Shown here: piece by piece, positions 38,642 through 43,549 of the stretch
Numbering within the stretch: position 1 is the first letter of the stretch
How the letters are laid out: each line of letters begins with the position of its first letter
Source of the DNA: a bacterium
Lineage (GTDB): Bacteria; Patescibacteriota; Minisyncoccia; JAHIHE01; JAGLIN01
Length of the DNA stretch: 46,458 bases
Direction of reading: 5' to 3'
Assembly (NCBI GenBank): GCA_030638825.1
Contig: DAOWDU010000014.1
Span: 1 to 46,458 of the forward strand
The notes under the pieces: generated by a model
The model's database searches: none
Told to the model about the DNA's origin: nothing
Seen by the model: only the letters and a program-made list of their open reading frames with translations
Translations under genes and position numbers: made by a program

Positions 38642-39172
38642 ATGAAATTACCAGTTACCGAAAAATTTTTATTGGATGTGTATAATTACACTGAAAAGTT
38701 AAATGAGACTTTTGATTTGTTCGCTCCTCGAACGATGAAGGAAGTTTGTTGTCCCGCTCTTTATGAATTAAAACAAGAATATAAAAAGCAAAAGGCAAAA
38801 CAAAAATTTAGTCAGTTGGTTTATCGTCTGAAAAAGAATGGCTATATTAAAATTAAAAATTTAGAACAAAATGAAGGAATTATCTTAACAGAGAAAGGAA
38901 CTGAAAAGGTTTTAAAAACAAAGCTTAAAATGCAAAACAAGAAAAAAAGATCTGATGAAAAATGGCAAATGATAATTTTTGACATTCCTGAAAGGAAAAA
39001 AGGATTAAGAAATTTATTGCGAGGAAAACTTCGTCTCTTAGAATACAAAATGCTTCAACAGAGCATTTGGATTTGTCCTTATAATGTTCAAAAAGAAACG
39101 CAGTTTATTTTAAGAAAATATTCTCTTGACTCATATGTAAAATTATTCCTAATAAAAGAAATAGAGATATAA
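38642..39172 (+). CDS. PaaX-like protein: winged helix + Cas2-like domain
   Basis: VYRLKKNGYI...LTEKG, then WQMIIFDIPE...R..LR..L...YKMLQQSIWICPY. Confidence 0.85.
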   Translation: MKLPVTEKFLLDVYNYTEKLNETFDLFAPRTMKEVCCPALYELKQEYKKQKAKQKFSQLVYRLKKNGYIKIKNLEQNEGIILTEKGTEKVLKTKLKMQNKKKRSDEKWQMIIFDIPERKKGLRNLLRGKLRLLEYKMLQQSIWICPYNVQKETQFILRKYSLDSYVKLFLIKEIEI

Positions 39173-39207
39173 CCTCTTTTTGAACGGCCGTTTGAAAAGA
39201 GGTTATA
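39168..39207. repeat. CGGCCG-centred palindrome overlapping the PaaX-like stop codon
   Basis: 39/40 identical to 38549-38588. Confidence 0.92.
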
Positions 39208-39307
39208 AATAAAATTTGTTAGTTTTATTGGTTATGGATTTTTAATAGCGTTGCTGACGATAATACATCTAAATTATTTATACAGACAAAATTAACATAA
39301 ATTTAAA

Positions 39308-42300
39308 ATGCAAAAATACAATCCTCAAAAAATTGAAAAGAAATGGCAGAAAGAATGGGATAAAAGCGAGATTTACAAGGCAGAAGATTTTTCTGAGAAG
39401 AAGAAGTTTTATTGCTTAATTGAATTCCCCTATCCATCTGGCGCTGGTTTGCATGTGGGACATTTAAGAAGTCATATTGCGATTGATATTATTGCTAGGA
39501 AAAAAAGAATGAGTGGATATAATGTGATGTATCCAATCGGCTGGGACGCTTTTGGGTTGCCGACAGAAAATTTTGCGATTAAGACAAAGACTCATCCAAA
39601 GATCGTGACGGAAAATAATATCAAAAATTTTACCAAGCAAATCAAAAGCTATGGACCAAGTTTTGACTGGTCGCGGGAAATAAATACCACTGATCCAAAA
39701 TATTACAAATGGACACAGTGGATTTTTTTGAAATTATTTAATAGCTTTTATGACGAGAAATTAGATAAAGCGCGTGATATTAAATATTTAGATATTCCGA
39801 AAAATTTAAATGCTTTAGAAAAAAGGGAATTTATTGACAGTCATAGATTAGCTTATGAAGCGGAAATGGCAATCAACTGGTGCCCGAGTTGTAAAATTGG
39901 ATTAGCGAATGAAGAAGTTGTGAATGGCACTTGCGAAAGATGCGGGGCTTTGGCAGAGAAAAAAATTATGAAACAATGGATGTTGCGAATCACAAAATAC
40001 GCAGATAGGTTGATTAAGGATTTAGATACTGTTGATTATTTAAATAAAATTAAAACGCAGCAGGTTAATTGGATTGGGAAATCAGAAGGAGCGATAGTTA
40101 AGTTTCAAATTAAAACTGACGACAATATAAAAACCCCGGAGCATAGCTCAGAGGTTTTTAATGAACCTGAGGGTAATCCCAGGTGCAGATCAAAGACTTG
40201 TCATCCCATTTACAATAATAGTATAAATGATAATGAAAAAGTTGTCAAGTCCAAAAATGACGCTGAGCCGGCAGAGGGATTCGAACCCTCAGATAATAGG
40301 ATGACAAATCTATATCTGCACCATGCTACTGGCAAATCAACGCCAAATTTATTATACCACTCTTTGAAAGTTTTTACCACTCGCCCCGATACTTTATTCG
40401 GATGCACTTATATGGTTTTATCGCCAGAACATCCACTAATTAAGAATTTAGAATCTGGAATTTTGAATTTAGAGGAAGTTAAAAAATACATTGAACAAGC
40501 GAAAAATAAATCTGATTTAGACCGAACTGATTTGGCGAAAGAGAAAACGGGAGTTGAATTGAAAGGAATTAAAGCGATTAATCCAATTAATAACGAAGAA
40601 ATTCCAATCTGGCTTGCGGATTATGTTTTGGCTTCTTACGGCACTGGCGCAATTATGGCGGTACCTGCGCATGATGAGAGGGATTTTGAGTTTGCGAAGA
40701 AGTTTGGATTGGAGATAAAGCAAGTTGTAGCGCCATTGTTTATTGGTGAAGGAAAAAATAAAATTAGAAAAGATAAGAAAAATACGAAAAGAACGGTTGT
40801 AGATGTTATAATTAAGCATTGGGAAAAAGATGAATATTTTTGCTTAGACTGGAGTAAAAGTAAAAATGATTGGAAGTCTTTTGTTGTCGGTGGCGTTGAA
40901 AAAGGAGAGAGCGAAGAGGAAGCAGCTTTGAGAGAGGCAAAAGAAGAATCTGGTTATCAAAATATGCGTGTTGTGAAAAAAATTGGAGGCATAGCCTATA
41001 GTCGTTTCTTTGCGGCTCATAAGGATGTTAATCGTCGTGATATAAAAAGAAGTTGTGTCTATATAGAATTATTGAATAGTAGTTTTATAGAACCAAAAGA
41101 AGAGGAAGTAAAAAATCATAATGGTATTTGGGTTAAAAAAGAAAAAGTAAAAGATTTCATAAATTTACAAGAACCAAAGATTCATTGGGATATTCTTCAA
41201 AATGGGGAAAAACCTTTTATAGGGTATGGTATTGCAATAAATTCTGAACAGTTTAATAATTTAGAAACCAGCGAATTTAAAATAAAAATAACCAAATGGC
41301 TGGAAGAAAACAACCTTGGCAAAAAAGCGATAAATTATAAATTGCGTGATTGGGTTTTTTCTAGACAGCATTATTGGGGGGAACCGATTCCAATTGTGAA
41401 ATGTGAGAAGTGCGGGAATATTGCGTTAGAAAAAAAAGATTTGCCTCTTGAACTTCCAGATGTCAAAAATTATGAGCCGACAGATACTGGCAAATCCCCT
41501 CTTGCAAAAATTGATCAGTGGGTAAATATAAAATGTCCGAAATGCAATAGCAATGCCAAAAGGGAAACTGACACGATGCCGAACTGGGCTGGGTCAAGCT
41601 GGTATTTTTTGCGATATATAGATTCTAAAAACAATAAAGAATTTGCTTCACCAGAAAAATTAAAATACTGGATGCCTGTTGATTTATATAACGGCGGAAT
41701 GGAACACACGACTTTGCATTTGCTTTATTCTAGATTTTGGCATAAGTTTTTATATGATTTAGGATATGTAAATACTTCCGAGCCATACAAAATACGAAGA
41801 TCTCACGGAATGATACTTGCTGAAGATGGACAAAAAATGAGCAAGTCCCGCGGAAATGTTGTTAATCCTGATGAAGTTATTGAGAAATATGGAGCGGATA
41901 CTCTCCGTCTTTATGAAATGTTTATGGGTCCGTATGGCGACGCAATTCCATGGAGCACGAGTAGTTTGATTGGGATGAATAGATTTTTGGAAAAGATCTG
42001 GAAAATGCAAAATAAAGTAGGGACACAAAATTTTGTGTCCGCAAACAAAAATATAGAAACATTGCTTCATCAAACAATAAAAAAAGTTACAGAAGATATT
42101 GAAAATTTAAAATTCAATACGGCGATTAGTTCACTAATGATTTTGTTAAATGGACTAGATAAAAAAGAAAAAATATCAAATATTCAATATTCAATATTCC
42201 TAATTATGTTATCCCCTTTCGCTCCGCATATTACAGAAGAATTATGGAAGATGTTTGAAAATAAAGAAAGCATTCATTTGCAGAAATGGCCAGAATACAA

Positions 42301-42508
42301 TGAAAAATTAGCTGAAGAAACAGAGATAACTTTAGTCATTCAAATTAACGGCAAAGTGCGAGACCAAATAGAAGTTCCAGCTGATATTTCCGAAGAAGAA
42401 GCAAAAAAAATCGCTTTAGGAAGAGATAAAATAAAAAAATGGACTGAAGGAAAAGAAATGAGGAAGATTATTTTCGTAAAAGGGAAATTGGTCAATGTGG
42501 TTGTGTAG
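39308..42508 (+). CDS. leuS: Leucine--tRNA ligase with an 82-aa insert and a NUDIX domain insertion
   Basis: FPYPSGAGLHVGH, TTRPDT, GTGAIMAVPAHDERD and KMSKS motifs; Nudix box GGVEKGESEEEAALREAKEESGY. Confidence 0.97.
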   Translation: MQKYNPQKIEKKWQKEWDKSEIYKAEDFSEKKKFYCLIEFPYPSGAGLHVGHLRSHIAIDIIARKKRMSGYNVMYPIGWDAFGLPTENFAIKTKTHPKIVTENNIKNFTKQIKSYGPSFDWSREINTTDPKYYKWTQWIFLKLFNSFYDEKLDKARDIKYLDIPKNLNALEKREFIDSHRLAYEAEMAINWCPSCKIGLANEEVVNGTCERCGALAEKKIMKQWMLRITKYADRLIKDLDTVDYLNKIKTQQVNWIGKSEGAIVKFQIKTDDNIKTPEHSSEVFNEPEGNPRCRSKTCHPIYNNSINDNEKVVKSKNDAEPAEGFEPSDNRMTNLYLHHATGKSTPNLLYHSLKVFTTRPDTLFGCTYMVLSPEHPLIKNLESGILNLEEVKKYIEQAKNKSDLDRTDLAKEKTGVELKGIKAINPINNEEIPIWLADYVLASYGTGAIMAVPAHDERDFEFAKKFGLEIKQVVAPLFIGEGKNKIRKDKKNTKRTVVDVIIKHWEKDEYFCLDWSKSKNDWKSFVVGGVEKGESEEEAALREAKEESGYQNMRVVKKIGGIAYSRFFAAHKDVNRRDIKRSCVYIELLNSSFIEPKEEEVKNHNGIWVKKEKVKDFINLQEPKIHWDILQNGEKPFIGYGIAINSEQFNNLETSEFKIKITKWLEENNLGKKAINYKLRDWVFSRQHYWGEPIPIVKCEKCGNIALEKKDLPLELPDVKNYEPTDTGKSPLAKIDQWVNIKCPKCNSNAKRETDTMPNWAGSSWYFLRYIDSKNNKEFASPEKLKYWMPVDLYNGGMEHTTLHLLYSRFWHKFLYDLGYVNTSEPYKIRRSHGMILAEDGQKMSKSRGNVVNPDEVIEKYGADTLRLYEMFMGPYGDAIPWSTSSLIGMNRFLEKIWKMQNKVGTQNFVSANKNIETLLHQTIKKVTEDIENLKFNTAISSLMILLNGLDKKEKISNIQYSIFLIMLSPFAPHITEELWKMFENKESIHLQKWPEYNEKLAEETEITLVIQINGKVRDQIEVPADISEEEAKKIALGRDKIKKWTEGKEMRKIIFVKGKLVNVVV
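40128..40160 (-). terminator. Terminator-like hairpin, antisense within leuS
   Basis: TAAAAACCTCTGAGC-tat-GCTCCGGGGTTTTTA on the minus strand. Confidence 0.55.
40220..40248 (-). promoter_or_regulatory. Near-consensus sigma70 promoter, antisense within leuS
   Basis: TTGACA-17 bp-TATACT. Confidence 0.7.
40266..40333 (-). ncRNA. 68-nt tRNA-like RNA (D-arm reduced), antisense within leuS
   Basis: Acceptor GCCAGTA/TGCCGGC (6/7 pairs), perfect T-arm GAGGG-TTCGAAT-CCCTC, loop TTTGTCA, no encoded CCA. Confidence 0.65.
40351..40359 (-). promoter_or_regulatory. Extended -10 promoter for the tRNA-like RNA
   Basis: TGGTATAAT, 17 nt upstream of the tRNA-like 5' end. Confidence 0.6.
42017..42040. repeat. 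GTAG-tagged palindrome inside leuS
   Basis: GTAG-GGACACAAAA|TTTTGTGTCC; translated as VGTQNFVS. Confidence 0.75.
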
Positions 42509-42522
42509 GAAATATTAAACCT

Positions 42523-42564
42523 AAAAAATGAAGGCGACATTCGCGAATGTCGCCTTCATTTTTT
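42523..42564. terminator. Perfect 42-bp palindrome, probable bidirectional terminator
   Basis: AAAAAATGAAGGCGACATTCG|CGAATGTCGCCTTCATTTTTT between convergent leuS and NIF3. Confidence 0.85.
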
Positions 42565-42583
42565 TATACGCTATCTCCTAAAC

Positions 42584-43549
42584 CTAAAATCTCTTCACTC
42601 TAATCAACCCCGAACAAGGAACAATCTCAATGCCTTTTTTCTCTAATTCGTCTAAAAATAAATTTACGCCTAAAGAATCAGAAGAAATATGTCCAGCAAT
42701 AACAACATTGAGATTATTTTTCTCCGCTTCCTTTTTATGTTCTTCTGACATATGCATTCCAACGATTGTCCCAATCCCCGCCTGTGCAATTTTTTCATAC
42801 ATTTTAGCAGAACCCTCTGTTCCGCCAGTAATTTCTATTAGAGCAATTTTACCAACTCGGCTACCTTCAGTTCCAGAAAAAAGACACGGTCCAGCTCCAT
42901 TCTTTATGGCTTCTTTATATTCAGGAATTGATTTTAATAATTTTAGTAAATCTGCTACATATTTTATTTTTGCTTTCTTAATTTTGTTATCTAAAAATTT
43001 TGCGGCTAAATTATCACACGGAGTATGGATATTCATCAAATTAATTTTTAAAATCTTAGCTATATCAACAGGTCTATTGTGATTTATTGGAGAAACTCCT
43101 CTGCTAACTTCTGAAATCCTTTCTCTCAAAACTCCTTCAGCAATATTTATCGGAACGCCGTATTGATTAAGAATGTCTGCCTGGAGATGCATTACTGAAT
43201 CTAAATTTGCAAGATTTTTTCCAATAGGATGATGTCCTAAAACAAGATCAATATCACCGAGCCTATCTGCCAACAAAATTTCTGCTTCATCTGCATCTAT
43301 TCCAACCAATATTTTTTTAACTGGCTTATTTAAACTCAAATTCAAAATACCCGAATCTAGATATGGATTTATTAGTCTGTCTTTATTGTAATCTTCCCTT
43401 TTTTCTTTATCAAGTTTATTATAATTTTCTTCTTCTCTCTTTAAAAGATCTTCTATATCTTTATCGGATCTAAAATCTGCTTTTACTCCCATCTTTATCG
43501 CTAAATCATAAATTTGTTCCATTGTCATCGTGCTTGTTTTCTTTGTCAT
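42584..43549 (-). CDS. NIF3 (NGG1p-interacting factor 3)-like protein
   Basis: LGHHP, HTPCDN and IAGHISSDSLG metal-binding motifs. Confidence 0.85.
   Translation of the reverse strand: MTKKTSTMTMEQIYDLAIKMGVKADFRSDKDIEDLLKREEENYNKLDKEKREDYNKDRLINPYLDSGILNLSLNKPVKKILVGIDADEAEILLADRLGDIDLVLGHHPIGKNLANLDSVMHLQADILNQYGVPINIAEGVLRERISEVSRGVSPINHNRPVDIAKILKINLMNIHTPCDNLAAKFLDNKIKKAKIKYVADLLKLLKSIPEYKEAIKNGAGPCLFSGTEGSRVGKIALIEITGGTEGSAKMYEKIAQAGIGTIVGMHMSEEHKKEAEKNNLNVVIAGHISSDSLGVNLFLDELEKKGIEIVPCSGLIRVKRF

Follow-up and report, generated by a model that had tools for sequence, protein, structure and literature searches.

In ColE1 RNA I/RNA II control and in pT181-type attenuation, two short RNAs pair in a loop-initiated manner, and a terminator lies just past the target. 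The CI RNA of phage P4 has a tRNA-like shape and follows the same immunity logic as C4 RNA. C4 is excised from a longer transcript by RNase P (PMC5320573), in line with the titles of Hartmann 1995 and Forti 1995 as cited in PMC5499578. The sections of the C4 literature drawn on here describe the RNA of phages P1 and P7 as processed by RNase P, with loops that confer specificity by pairing with a target close by (PMC5320573). Rickettsia palindromic elements (RPEs), in the parts of the account drawn on here, are short structured repeats that insert in frame, contribute a conserved peptide and leave the host protein intact (PMC10969869). The present analysis concerns an in-frame insert in leuS, the leucyl-tRNA synthetase (LeuRS) gene found in a 46,458-nucleotide stretch of DNA (contig DAOWDU010000014.1; hereafter the window). 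The window corresponds to contig C42 in G000, a genome of 57 contigs and 1.15 Mb from the Patescibacteria, or candidate phyla radiation (CPR).

The insert is one copy of an undescribed ~250-bp small-RNA cassette family in Patescibacteria. The cassette has a fixed anatomy, recurs as a family, covaries as a structured RNA, is constrained at the nucleotide level and occupies multiple insertion sites. Its sequences are best read, with a rough probability of 0.7, as a self-contained family that would encode two pairing RNAs of C4/CI-like logic and move among sites.

An in-frame insert in the sole LeuRS gene

The leuS gene (39308..42508, plus strand) is an open reading frame (ORF) of 1066 amino acids and the sole LeuRS gene of G000, in which a PF13603 search returned one strong locus. 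In Pfam, its product contains LeuRS editing, class I catalytic, anticodon-binding and NUDIX domains. The 82-codon insert described in the original prediction is present as 81–82 stop-free codons (about 40115/40118–40360) between KFQIK and SLKVFTTRPDT. Its plus-strand reading gives an 81–82-residue peptide (DDNIKTP...NLLYH) at the start of the editing domain, for which no Pfam family was matched. Only one of the six frames is open across the insert in each of the four leuS copies. The whole cassette is assigned to 40118..40360 with the minus strand as the RNA strand, and similarity to the copy on metagenome contig L063 starts and stops at these points.

The insert is absent from this position (site A) in the LeuRS of 29 relatives, an alignment that the original prediction had proposed as a check. 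The loop at site A is hypervariable in these proteins, with roughly 5–40 residues, and has 6 residues in a genome of the same genus. The 246 insert bases have no second copy in G000, and a BLAST search of 23 family genomes recovered no cassette, its matches being limited to tRNA T arms and an unrelated stretch of 22 nt. Misassembly, which had been named as a refuting outcome, was addressed with Logan contigs. Contigs from two runs (X1 and X2), each differing at a single base, span 39950–40550, and parts of the region are also covered by two other runs; all four runs belong to one cold-seep study, possibly the window's own source. An intein or self-splicing intron was considered and is not supported, with no group I or group II intron match in Rfam (E ≤ 1) and an insert of 81–82 residues that lacks a Pfam match. 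Inteins are not known to be this short.

Short contigs from runs X1 and X4 match window positions 40264–40360, the tRNA-like part, with nine differing bases (records 6 and 27). Because these contigs come from the same metagenomes, diverged cassette variants coexist in the community.

Minus-strand anatomy of the window copy

Every element listed in the original prediction was located on the minus strand. Promoter P1 is recognized from its sequence as an extended −10 box, TGGTATAAT (40359–40351), and its −35 position falls in the leuS core. A 17-nt 5′ leader (40334..40350), defined by position only and presumably removed by RNase P, separates P1 from a tRNA-like RNA (RNA 1; 40333–40267). RNA 1 is delimited as 67 nt, compared with 68 nt in the prediction, and is supported by covariation, by 85.8 bits with a family covariance model (R1, below) and by 21.5 bits with the Rfam model mascRNA-menRNA. 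It folds into a seven-pair acceptor stem, a 3-bp D-like hairpin, a 5-bp stem with a 17-nt loop and a canonical T arm. ARAGORN called no tRNA in the window. A match to the tRNA or C4 family had been suggested as a further check, but neither was obtained; in a cmscan search of 39000–43000 (E ≤ 1), the sole match at the cassette was the tRNA-like mascRNA-menRNA (E 0.53). G000 contains an RNase P RNA gene (131 bits).

Promoter P2 (TTGACA-17-TATACT; 40248–40220, minus strand) agrees with the consensus at 11 of 12 positions and ranks first among 18 promoter-like sites in 39300–42600. It is followed by the target (40178..40211, core 40182–40210, minus strand), which forms the 5′ end of a second predicted RNA, RNA 2, and is complementary to RNA 1 at 40295–40326. 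Counted by hand, target positions 40210–40182 and RNA 1 positions 40322–40295 form 25 Watson–Crick and two G-U pairs with one mismatch and one bulge, in agreement with the predicted complementarity. RNAduplex gives −41.9 kcal/mol for this interaction, compared with a shuffled mean of −16.0 kcal/mol (z −9.8), and none of 300 shuffles was as good. A short hairpin (40165..40184, minus strand), seen in the folds, lies between the target and the terminator; it is also found in L063, and similar hairpins occur in both copies of the LeuRS locus L068. The intrinsic terminator (40128..40160, minus strand) consists of a stem followed by TTTTT, is identified by an inverted repeat and by folds, and serves RNA 2 and any read-through from P1. 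The terminator region folds with −15.6 kcal/mol on the minus strand and more weakly, with −13.3 kcal/mol, on the leuS sense strand. One mismatch in its stem kept it from being flagged by a simple terminator scan.

Folds of the whole insert beat shuffled sequences on both strands, with −78.6 kcal/mol (z −5.1) on the minus strand and −70.0 kcal/mol (z −5.7) on the plus strand. Both predicted minus-strand RNAs are perfect complements of the leuS mRNA.

Identification of the cassette family

Fourteen distinct DNA copies of the cassette were collected from 10 Patescibacteria genomes and one metagenome contig (L063), and five more LeuRS copies are known from protein sequences only. A search with the insert peptide found three other LeuRS proteins at 58–65% identity. 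Among 1.84 billion representative proteins, a profile search returned seven matches, of which four were true and all LeuRS; the other three were repeat-protein false positives. A peptide-pattern scan of genome contigs produced 93 candidate stretches, none of which was confirmed.

At the nucleotide level, a 24-nt T-arm/acceptor pattern found five loci in genome contigs: two LeuRS loci (L064 and L068), two intergenic loci in other Patescibacteria (L065 and L066) and L067. The strict pattern GCAYGGYGY-N24-32-GGGTTCGAATCCC found only leuS of G000 and nothing in 400 other genomes of a phylum sample; copies missed by it were later recovered by covariance models. Covariance model R1, built for the tRNA-like RNA, scored family copies at 38–88 bits and gave genuine tRNAs no more than 33.7 bits. 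It yielded further copies in the host genomes of L064–L066, in two of 150 other relatives and as a second copy in L084. A 13-sequence model, R2, added one more copy from one of 150 other genomes of the phylum sample. These large scans covered about 300 genomes, with 34 candidates scored per genome and strict filters. The cassette occurs in about 1–2% of the genomes sampled, at 1–4 copies per host genome, and G439, G440, G442 and G528 carry 2–4 distinct copies each. No Rfam family was found for the cassette, and a limited literature search found no described element of this kind in Patescibacteria.

Three loci show peculiarities of their own. On L064, a 6934-base contig, the LeuRS fragment with both cassette copies is present twice, inverted and with identical sequence, which is probably a palindromic assembly artefact. 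At L067:2273–2296 (minus strand), on a Gemmatimonadota contig and thus in another phylum, the 24-nt pattern lies in the 3′ part of an apparent tRNA-Leu(UAA). This piece comprises an anticodon loop, a long variable arm, a T arm and an acceptor strand, has no recognizable 5′ half and was not called by ARAGORN; it may be an attachment-site remnant. The LeuRS fragments P0006 and P0007 carry about 24 extra residues (NPAPFKQLF...KRCGV) in the peptide where the P2 −35 box would lie; these may stem from a nested insertion or mark a longer variant.

Conserved architecture, pairing and covariation

The order of elements is constant in all 14 copies and confined to one strand: RNA 1 (66–68 nt), P2, target and terminator. 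A P2-type promoter (TTGAC[AT]-N16-18-TAnnnT) is present in every copy. By eye, a −10 box lies 6–17 nt ahead of the RNA 1 acceptor in 12 of the 14 copies and carries a TGn extension in 11 of them; the exceptions are L065, without a −10 box at a usable distance, and L084b, where the box is weak. The target is 25–30 nt long and complementary to the D/anticodon-like region of RNA 1, with a contiguous pairing region of 23–32 bp across copies. In RNAduplex alignments, it begins 1–9 nt after the −10 box in nine of 12 copies measured, and the alignment runs upstream or lands elsewhere in L076, L077 and L083. The terminator was seen in the 12 copies scored and is visible in the other two, 110–133 nt after RNA 1 in the copies measured. 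No ORF is conserved in RNA 2.

The pairing between RNA 1 and the target is specific to each copy. When the RNA 1 cores of 12 copies were each paired with all 12 downstream regions, the cognate combination ranked first in every one of the 12 rows and in 11 of the 12 columns of the resulting matrix; mean energies were −39.9 kcal/mol for cognate and −22.2 kcal/mol for non-cognate pairs. The sole exception involves two copies with similar loops. In the remaining two copies, the cognate duplexes reach −41.2 and −42.7 kcal/mol. The loop and target sequences vary among copies, yet each matches its own partner, and conserved complementarity in homologues, whose absence would have counted against the original prediction, is therefore a property of the family. 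Comparison of the window with L063 shows five pairs of the helix between RNA 1 and the target in which both partners have changed and pairing persists. In 10 of 12 copies, the promoter-bearing strand forms the stronger duplex, and G-U pairs make up 37 of the 326 duplex pairs; this identifies the strand antisense to leuS as the RNA strand.

The cloverleaf of RNA 1 covaries as well. Across six copies, 94.2% of the cells are paired, compared with 85.0% after shuffling, and seven pairs show double-sided changes; neither value was reached in 500 shuffles. When one strand was slid, 33–50% of the cells were paired. Across thirteen copies, in an alignment fitted to the covariance model, 95.4% of the cells are paired (76.2% in shuffles; 0/500 as high), and double-sided changes affect 14 of 20 pairs, a count reached in 2 of 500 shuffles. 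The acceptor region varies at its ends. In L065, both L084 copies and L085, ACC followed by G or A stands after the acceptor stem, as at a tRNA 3′ end, and in copies of the GGGGG type the leader and trailer lengthen the acceptor stem by 4–5 pairs.

These features bear on the view that the insert is a decayed tRNA gene, an attachment-site remnant, a chance resemblance or an assembly artefact. In its favour, the T arm and acceptor are tRNA-Leu-like, ARAGORN calls no tRNA and the window copy has an acceptor-stem mismatch. However, the 3-bp D-like hairpin, the long loop and the downstream promoter, target and terminator are common to all 14 copies, and shuffled controls are far weaker. Moreover, independent contigs span the insert, and the copies differ in sequence and context and are not assembly duplicates of one sequence. 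This explanation is scarcely credible.

Selection acts on the nucleic acid

The elements of the window and L063 align with 84% mean column identity over a region that includes unrelated flanks. The element differences fall almost evenly on the three codon positions (12, 16 and 12), with a synonymous divergence (dS) of 0.27 and a nonsynonymous divergence (dN) of 0.17. In the LeuRS core, the differences number 25, 18 and 101 over the N-terminal 265 codons and 78, 35 and 167 over the C-terminal part, with dS of 1.4–1.7 and dN of 0.08–0.15. The dN/dS ratio is about 0.65 for the element and about 0.06–0.09 for the core. Changes that are compensatory in the RNA alter the peptide, from Cys to Arg in one arm and from His-His to Arg-Arg in the other. 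The changes are spread evenly over codon positions and compensate for one another in the RNA; it is therefore the nucleic acid, and not the peptide, that is under selection. The free-standing copies L065 and L066 contain three and two stops, respectively, in the frame used by the leuS copies. The peptide is, as judged from these sequences, a passenger.

It is accordingly very improbable that the insert serves LeuRS as a functional protein segment, such as a metal-binding Cys/His knuckle, with the RNA features as side effects. Such a role would account for the open frame in all leuS copies and for the C-x4-C-H and HH motifs in four of five aligned peptides, and the LeuRS of this group accepts other domain inserts (NUDIX, PD-(D/E)XK and serine hydrolase). 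However, the first Cys and both His residues are the ones replaced by Arg in L063 through RNA-compensatory changes, and the codon-position pattern and dN/dS differ sharply from those of the core. The peptide also stands at four places in LeuRS, with a related peptide in a MiaB-like protein, lacks a Pfam match and is interrupted by stops in non-coding copies.

The NUDIX domain of the window LeuRS (Pfam, residues 518–614; 40859–41149, plus strand) is inserted after the editing domain. Other inserted LeuRS domains include a PD-(D/E)XK nuclease and a serine hydrolase in L063, NUDIX in L068 and further families in P0004.

Genomic settings and insertion sites

The original prediction regarded the insert as a captured module, and the conserved unit is indeed also found free-standing in intergenic DNA. 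Half of the copies (7/14) are intergenic, and the other seven are antisense to an ORF, in a frame that is constant with respect to the T arm. Of the ORF-overlapping copies, leuS holds four and a MiaB-like gene two; the last overlaps the 5′ end of a large ORF. Four different leuS sites are occupied, and neither this spread nor the pair of MiaB-like copies was anticipated in the original prediction. Site A of the window is also used in P0002, which is 72% identical to the window LeuRS overall and about 90% identical in the flanking core. Site B, after the serine-hydrolase insert, is used in L063, and site C, after GININS, in P0003, P0004, P0006, P0007 and P0008. Site D is found in the L068 gene, which holds two cassette copies; two of the four sites lie in this one gene. 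The MiaB-like methylthiotransferase gene (L081:286–2067, minus strand; UPF0004, Radical_SAM and TRAM) has two cassettes, both antisense and in frame. As the insertion places differ and in-gene copies are always antisense in one frame, the cassette appears to land variously and to survive in genes only in an open frame.

Neighbours were examined for four of the seven intergenic copies and are unrelated genes. Three of these copies point at the next gene (a 215-residue membrane protein, a ZIP transporter and SecA), and one is convergent with the L25 gene. No phage genes stand beside the copies whose neighbours were examined, and the examined neighbours are housekeeping genes. Phage or plasmid relatives were likewise not found by blastn against phages and plasmids, a search that the original prediction had called for, by peptide patterns or by the 24-nt pattern in viral contigs.

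Site A holds other sequences in some relatives. In five of the 29 (L026, L028, L033, L036 and L038), it contains a different in-frame palindromic element, translated as VILRRHDEESRTNTQND..., that forms a long hairpin with −33 to −48 kcal/mol on the minus strand and −25 to −41 kcal/mol on the plus strand. In L023, L034, L037 and L048, the loop is of low complexity, with NSKFQI/NSKLQI-like units and AAATTC-type tandem repeats. Site A seems to be a hot spot for structured insertions. The L065 copy (about 640–700 and 1010–1080) is the only one flanked by ~32-nt inverted repeats, each within its own hairpin; these could be element ends or an unrelated repeat family. The gene next to the L081 MiaB-like ORF is CCA-adding-enzyme-like (PolyA_pol_RNAbd, tRNA_NucTran2_2 and HD domains).

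The distribution invites comparison with a palindromic DNA repeat, similar to a miniature inverted-repeat transposable element (MITE) or an RPE, whose hairpins would act as DNA and whose promoter and tRNA features would be incidental or serve its spread. The spread is patchy (2/150 other relatives and 1/150 other genomes of the phylum sample), four genomes carry 2–4 distinct copies each, a different palindromic element occupies the same leuS site in five of 29 relatives and inverted repeats flank the L065 copy. Moreover, in-frame insertion with a conserved peptide resembles the RPEs as described in the sections cited (PMC10969869). Against this stand the promoters and terminators in fixed order and orientation in 14 of 14 copies, the G-U pairs that favour one strand and the RNA-like covariation of the cloverleaf. 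Terminal inverted repeats and a target-site duplication are also not common to the copies. Such an element is unlikely to be the whole account, and it is compatible with the two-RNA cassette, since a mobile element can carry RNA genes.

The choice of host genes points in another direction. RNA 1 might mimic tRNA-Leu and be bound by the host LeuRS or MiaB, which would thereby set antisense transcription of its own gene as feedback. The cassettes would then be tRNA mimics that specifically colonize genes for tRNA enzymes, with binding either tuning antisense transcription or aiding insertion, a proposal that we hold to be similarly doubtful. Six of the seven ORF-overlapping copies lie in LeuRS (four sites) or the MiaB-like protein (two sites), and every true protein-level match is LeuRS. 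The GCCGG start of the acceptor is shared with only three of 43 G000 tRNAs, all tRNA-Leu. The best G000 tRNA under model R1 is tRNA-Leu(CAA), with Leu tRNAs at ranks 1, 4, 5 and 8 among 14 tRNA matches, and the 24-nt pattern also met the apparent tRNA-Leu(UAA) 3′ fragment in another phylum. However, seven of the 14 copies are intergenic, beside unrelated genes (ZIP transporter, SecA, membrane protein and L25), and the acceptor stem of one subfamily differs (GGGGG...). In the leuS copies, the acceptor stem is followed by U, as against A in the tRNA-Leu genes of G000. Two host genes are known, multiple copies per gene could reflect local duplication and protein searches see only copies read in this frame.

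Proposed working of the cassette

The scheme below is proposed; in it, transcription and processing of the RNAs, their pairing in the cell, movement of the cassette and any influence on leuS are inferences. P1, with its extended −10 box, would drive a precursor from which RNase P and 3′ trimming would release the 67-nt RNA 1. About 20 nt further on, P2 would drive RNA 2, a transcript of about 85 nt predicted to end at the cassette terminator. The first 25–30 nt of RNA 2 would pair with the D-like hairpin, the stem and the 17-nt loop of RNA 1. This pairing would probably begin at the loop, and each RNA would limit the free level of the other. The cassette would have moved or been transferred between sites and, within genes, would be kept only when antisense and in the single stop-free frame. 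The window copy would consequently be translated as a passenger loop of 81–82 residues in the sole LeuRS, and the complementarity of both RNAs to the leuS mRNA would be a by-product.

Control of RNA 2 by attenuation was considered and rejected. The terminator is present in both target states in 10 of 12 folds, with the L068 copies 1 and 2 lacking an intact terminator in either state and the constraint misplaced in L077, and no antiterminator appeared in any fold. Because terminator formation is independent of the target, mutual titration or duplex-triggered decay is favoured over attenuation. Two further candidates were set aside. Pairing between the RNA 1 3′ tail and the terminator was seen by eye in some copies and is not conserved, and the small ORF in RNA 2 (four codons in the window and 18 in L063) is not conserved either.

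Several points weigh against the self-contained two-RNA cassette. As its terminator forms with or without a free target, the pairing has no obvious regulatory output. A search of G000 for targets in trans, allowing three mismatches or fewer to the complement of the 17-nt loop, gave eight sites, one of which is the cassette's own target and seven of which are chance-like; the leuS mRNA is the only other good target in the genome. G000 has the window copy only. Terminal inverted repeats, a target-site duplication, a transposase, an integrase and a recombinase were not identified, and the compared ends include none common to the copies. Four of the 14 DNA copies came from a pattern that fixes the T arm and part of the acceptor, so conservation there is partly by design, and the thirteen-copy statistics likewise depend on an alignment shaped by the model. 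The low dS of the element could, on the sequence comparison, result from recent transfer rather than constraint. Within the window copy, the acceptor stem of RNA 1 has an A-C mismatch, the sole unpaired cell there among 13 copies, and P1 has no −35 box; this copy may be partly decayed. It is largely intact apart from these two features.

Significance

If the two-RNA reading is correct, the cassettes constitute a new small-RNA family for the tiny genomes of Patescibacteria, of a kind not found described there. Two RNA genes, complete with their two promoters and a terminator, would lie antisense within an essential gene and be read through as protein, an extreme form of dual coding. Rickettsia palindromic elements already show in-frame insertion, and the cassette adds a second case that is independent of them; it also helps explain the unexplained inserts in aminoacyl-tRNA synthetases of the group. 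The matched loops and targets form a natural set of orthogonal RNA–RNA pairs, and the repeated link to tRNA enzymes offers a testable lead to a new kind of autoregulation.

Comparison with known systems

RNA 1 resembles tRNA in its 7-bp acceptor stem and canonical T arm, and the L066 copy passes the Rfam tRNA threshold (33.9 bits; cut-off 29). It differs from tRNA in that the D arm is a 3-bp hairpin and the anticodon-like loop has 17 nt instead of 7. ARAGORN made no call on the window, L064, L065, L066 or L068, and no Rfam tRNA match was obtained in the window at E ≤ 1.

The two proposed short RNAs, which would pair loop-first with a terminator just past the target, recall ColE1 RNA I/RNA II and pT181-type attenuation. 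In contrast to these systems, the RNAs of the cassette lie side by side on the same strand and not opposite each other, the RNA 2 terminator folds regardless of pairing and no replication gene follows.

The cassette is similar to RPEs in that seven of the 14 DNA copies lie in ORFs in one frame, along with the five protein-only LeuRS copies. It differs in that RPEs, in the sections of the paper drawn on here, are ~150 bp long with many copies per genome, whereas the cassette has 1–4 copies (PMC10969869). The cassette also has a fixed RNA-gene anatomy, whereas promoters, a tRNA-like RNA and an antisense target are not among the features given for RPEs in those sections (PMC10969869).

The C4 and CI RNAs are closest in logic. 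As in these systems, a cloverleaf-like RNA of ~70–80 nt would pair with an adjacent target on the same strand, and specificity would reside in variable loops that co-vary with the target. The C4/CI-like character that the original prediction had proposed therefore holds for the pairing logic; it does not extend to an Rfam C4 match, two-loop pairing, phage or plasmid relatives, or phage neighbours. No C4 match was obtained by cmscan at E ≤ 1 in window positions 39000–43000 or in L065, L066 and L068. The cassette has one contiguous interaction of 25–30 nt that includes the 17-nt loop, whereas C4 uses two loops (a′ and b′). The cassette target stands at the 5′ end of a separate short predicted RNA with its own consensus promoter and terminator, whereas C4 pairs with two target boxes of a downstream mRNA, one of which overlaps a ribosome-binding site. 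The cassette also differs from both in its occurrence in Patescibacteria, where no phage context was found, and in the in-frame overlap of half of its copies with ORFs. Although the cassette is not a member of the C4/CI family, its predicted logic is, by analogy, C4/CI-like.

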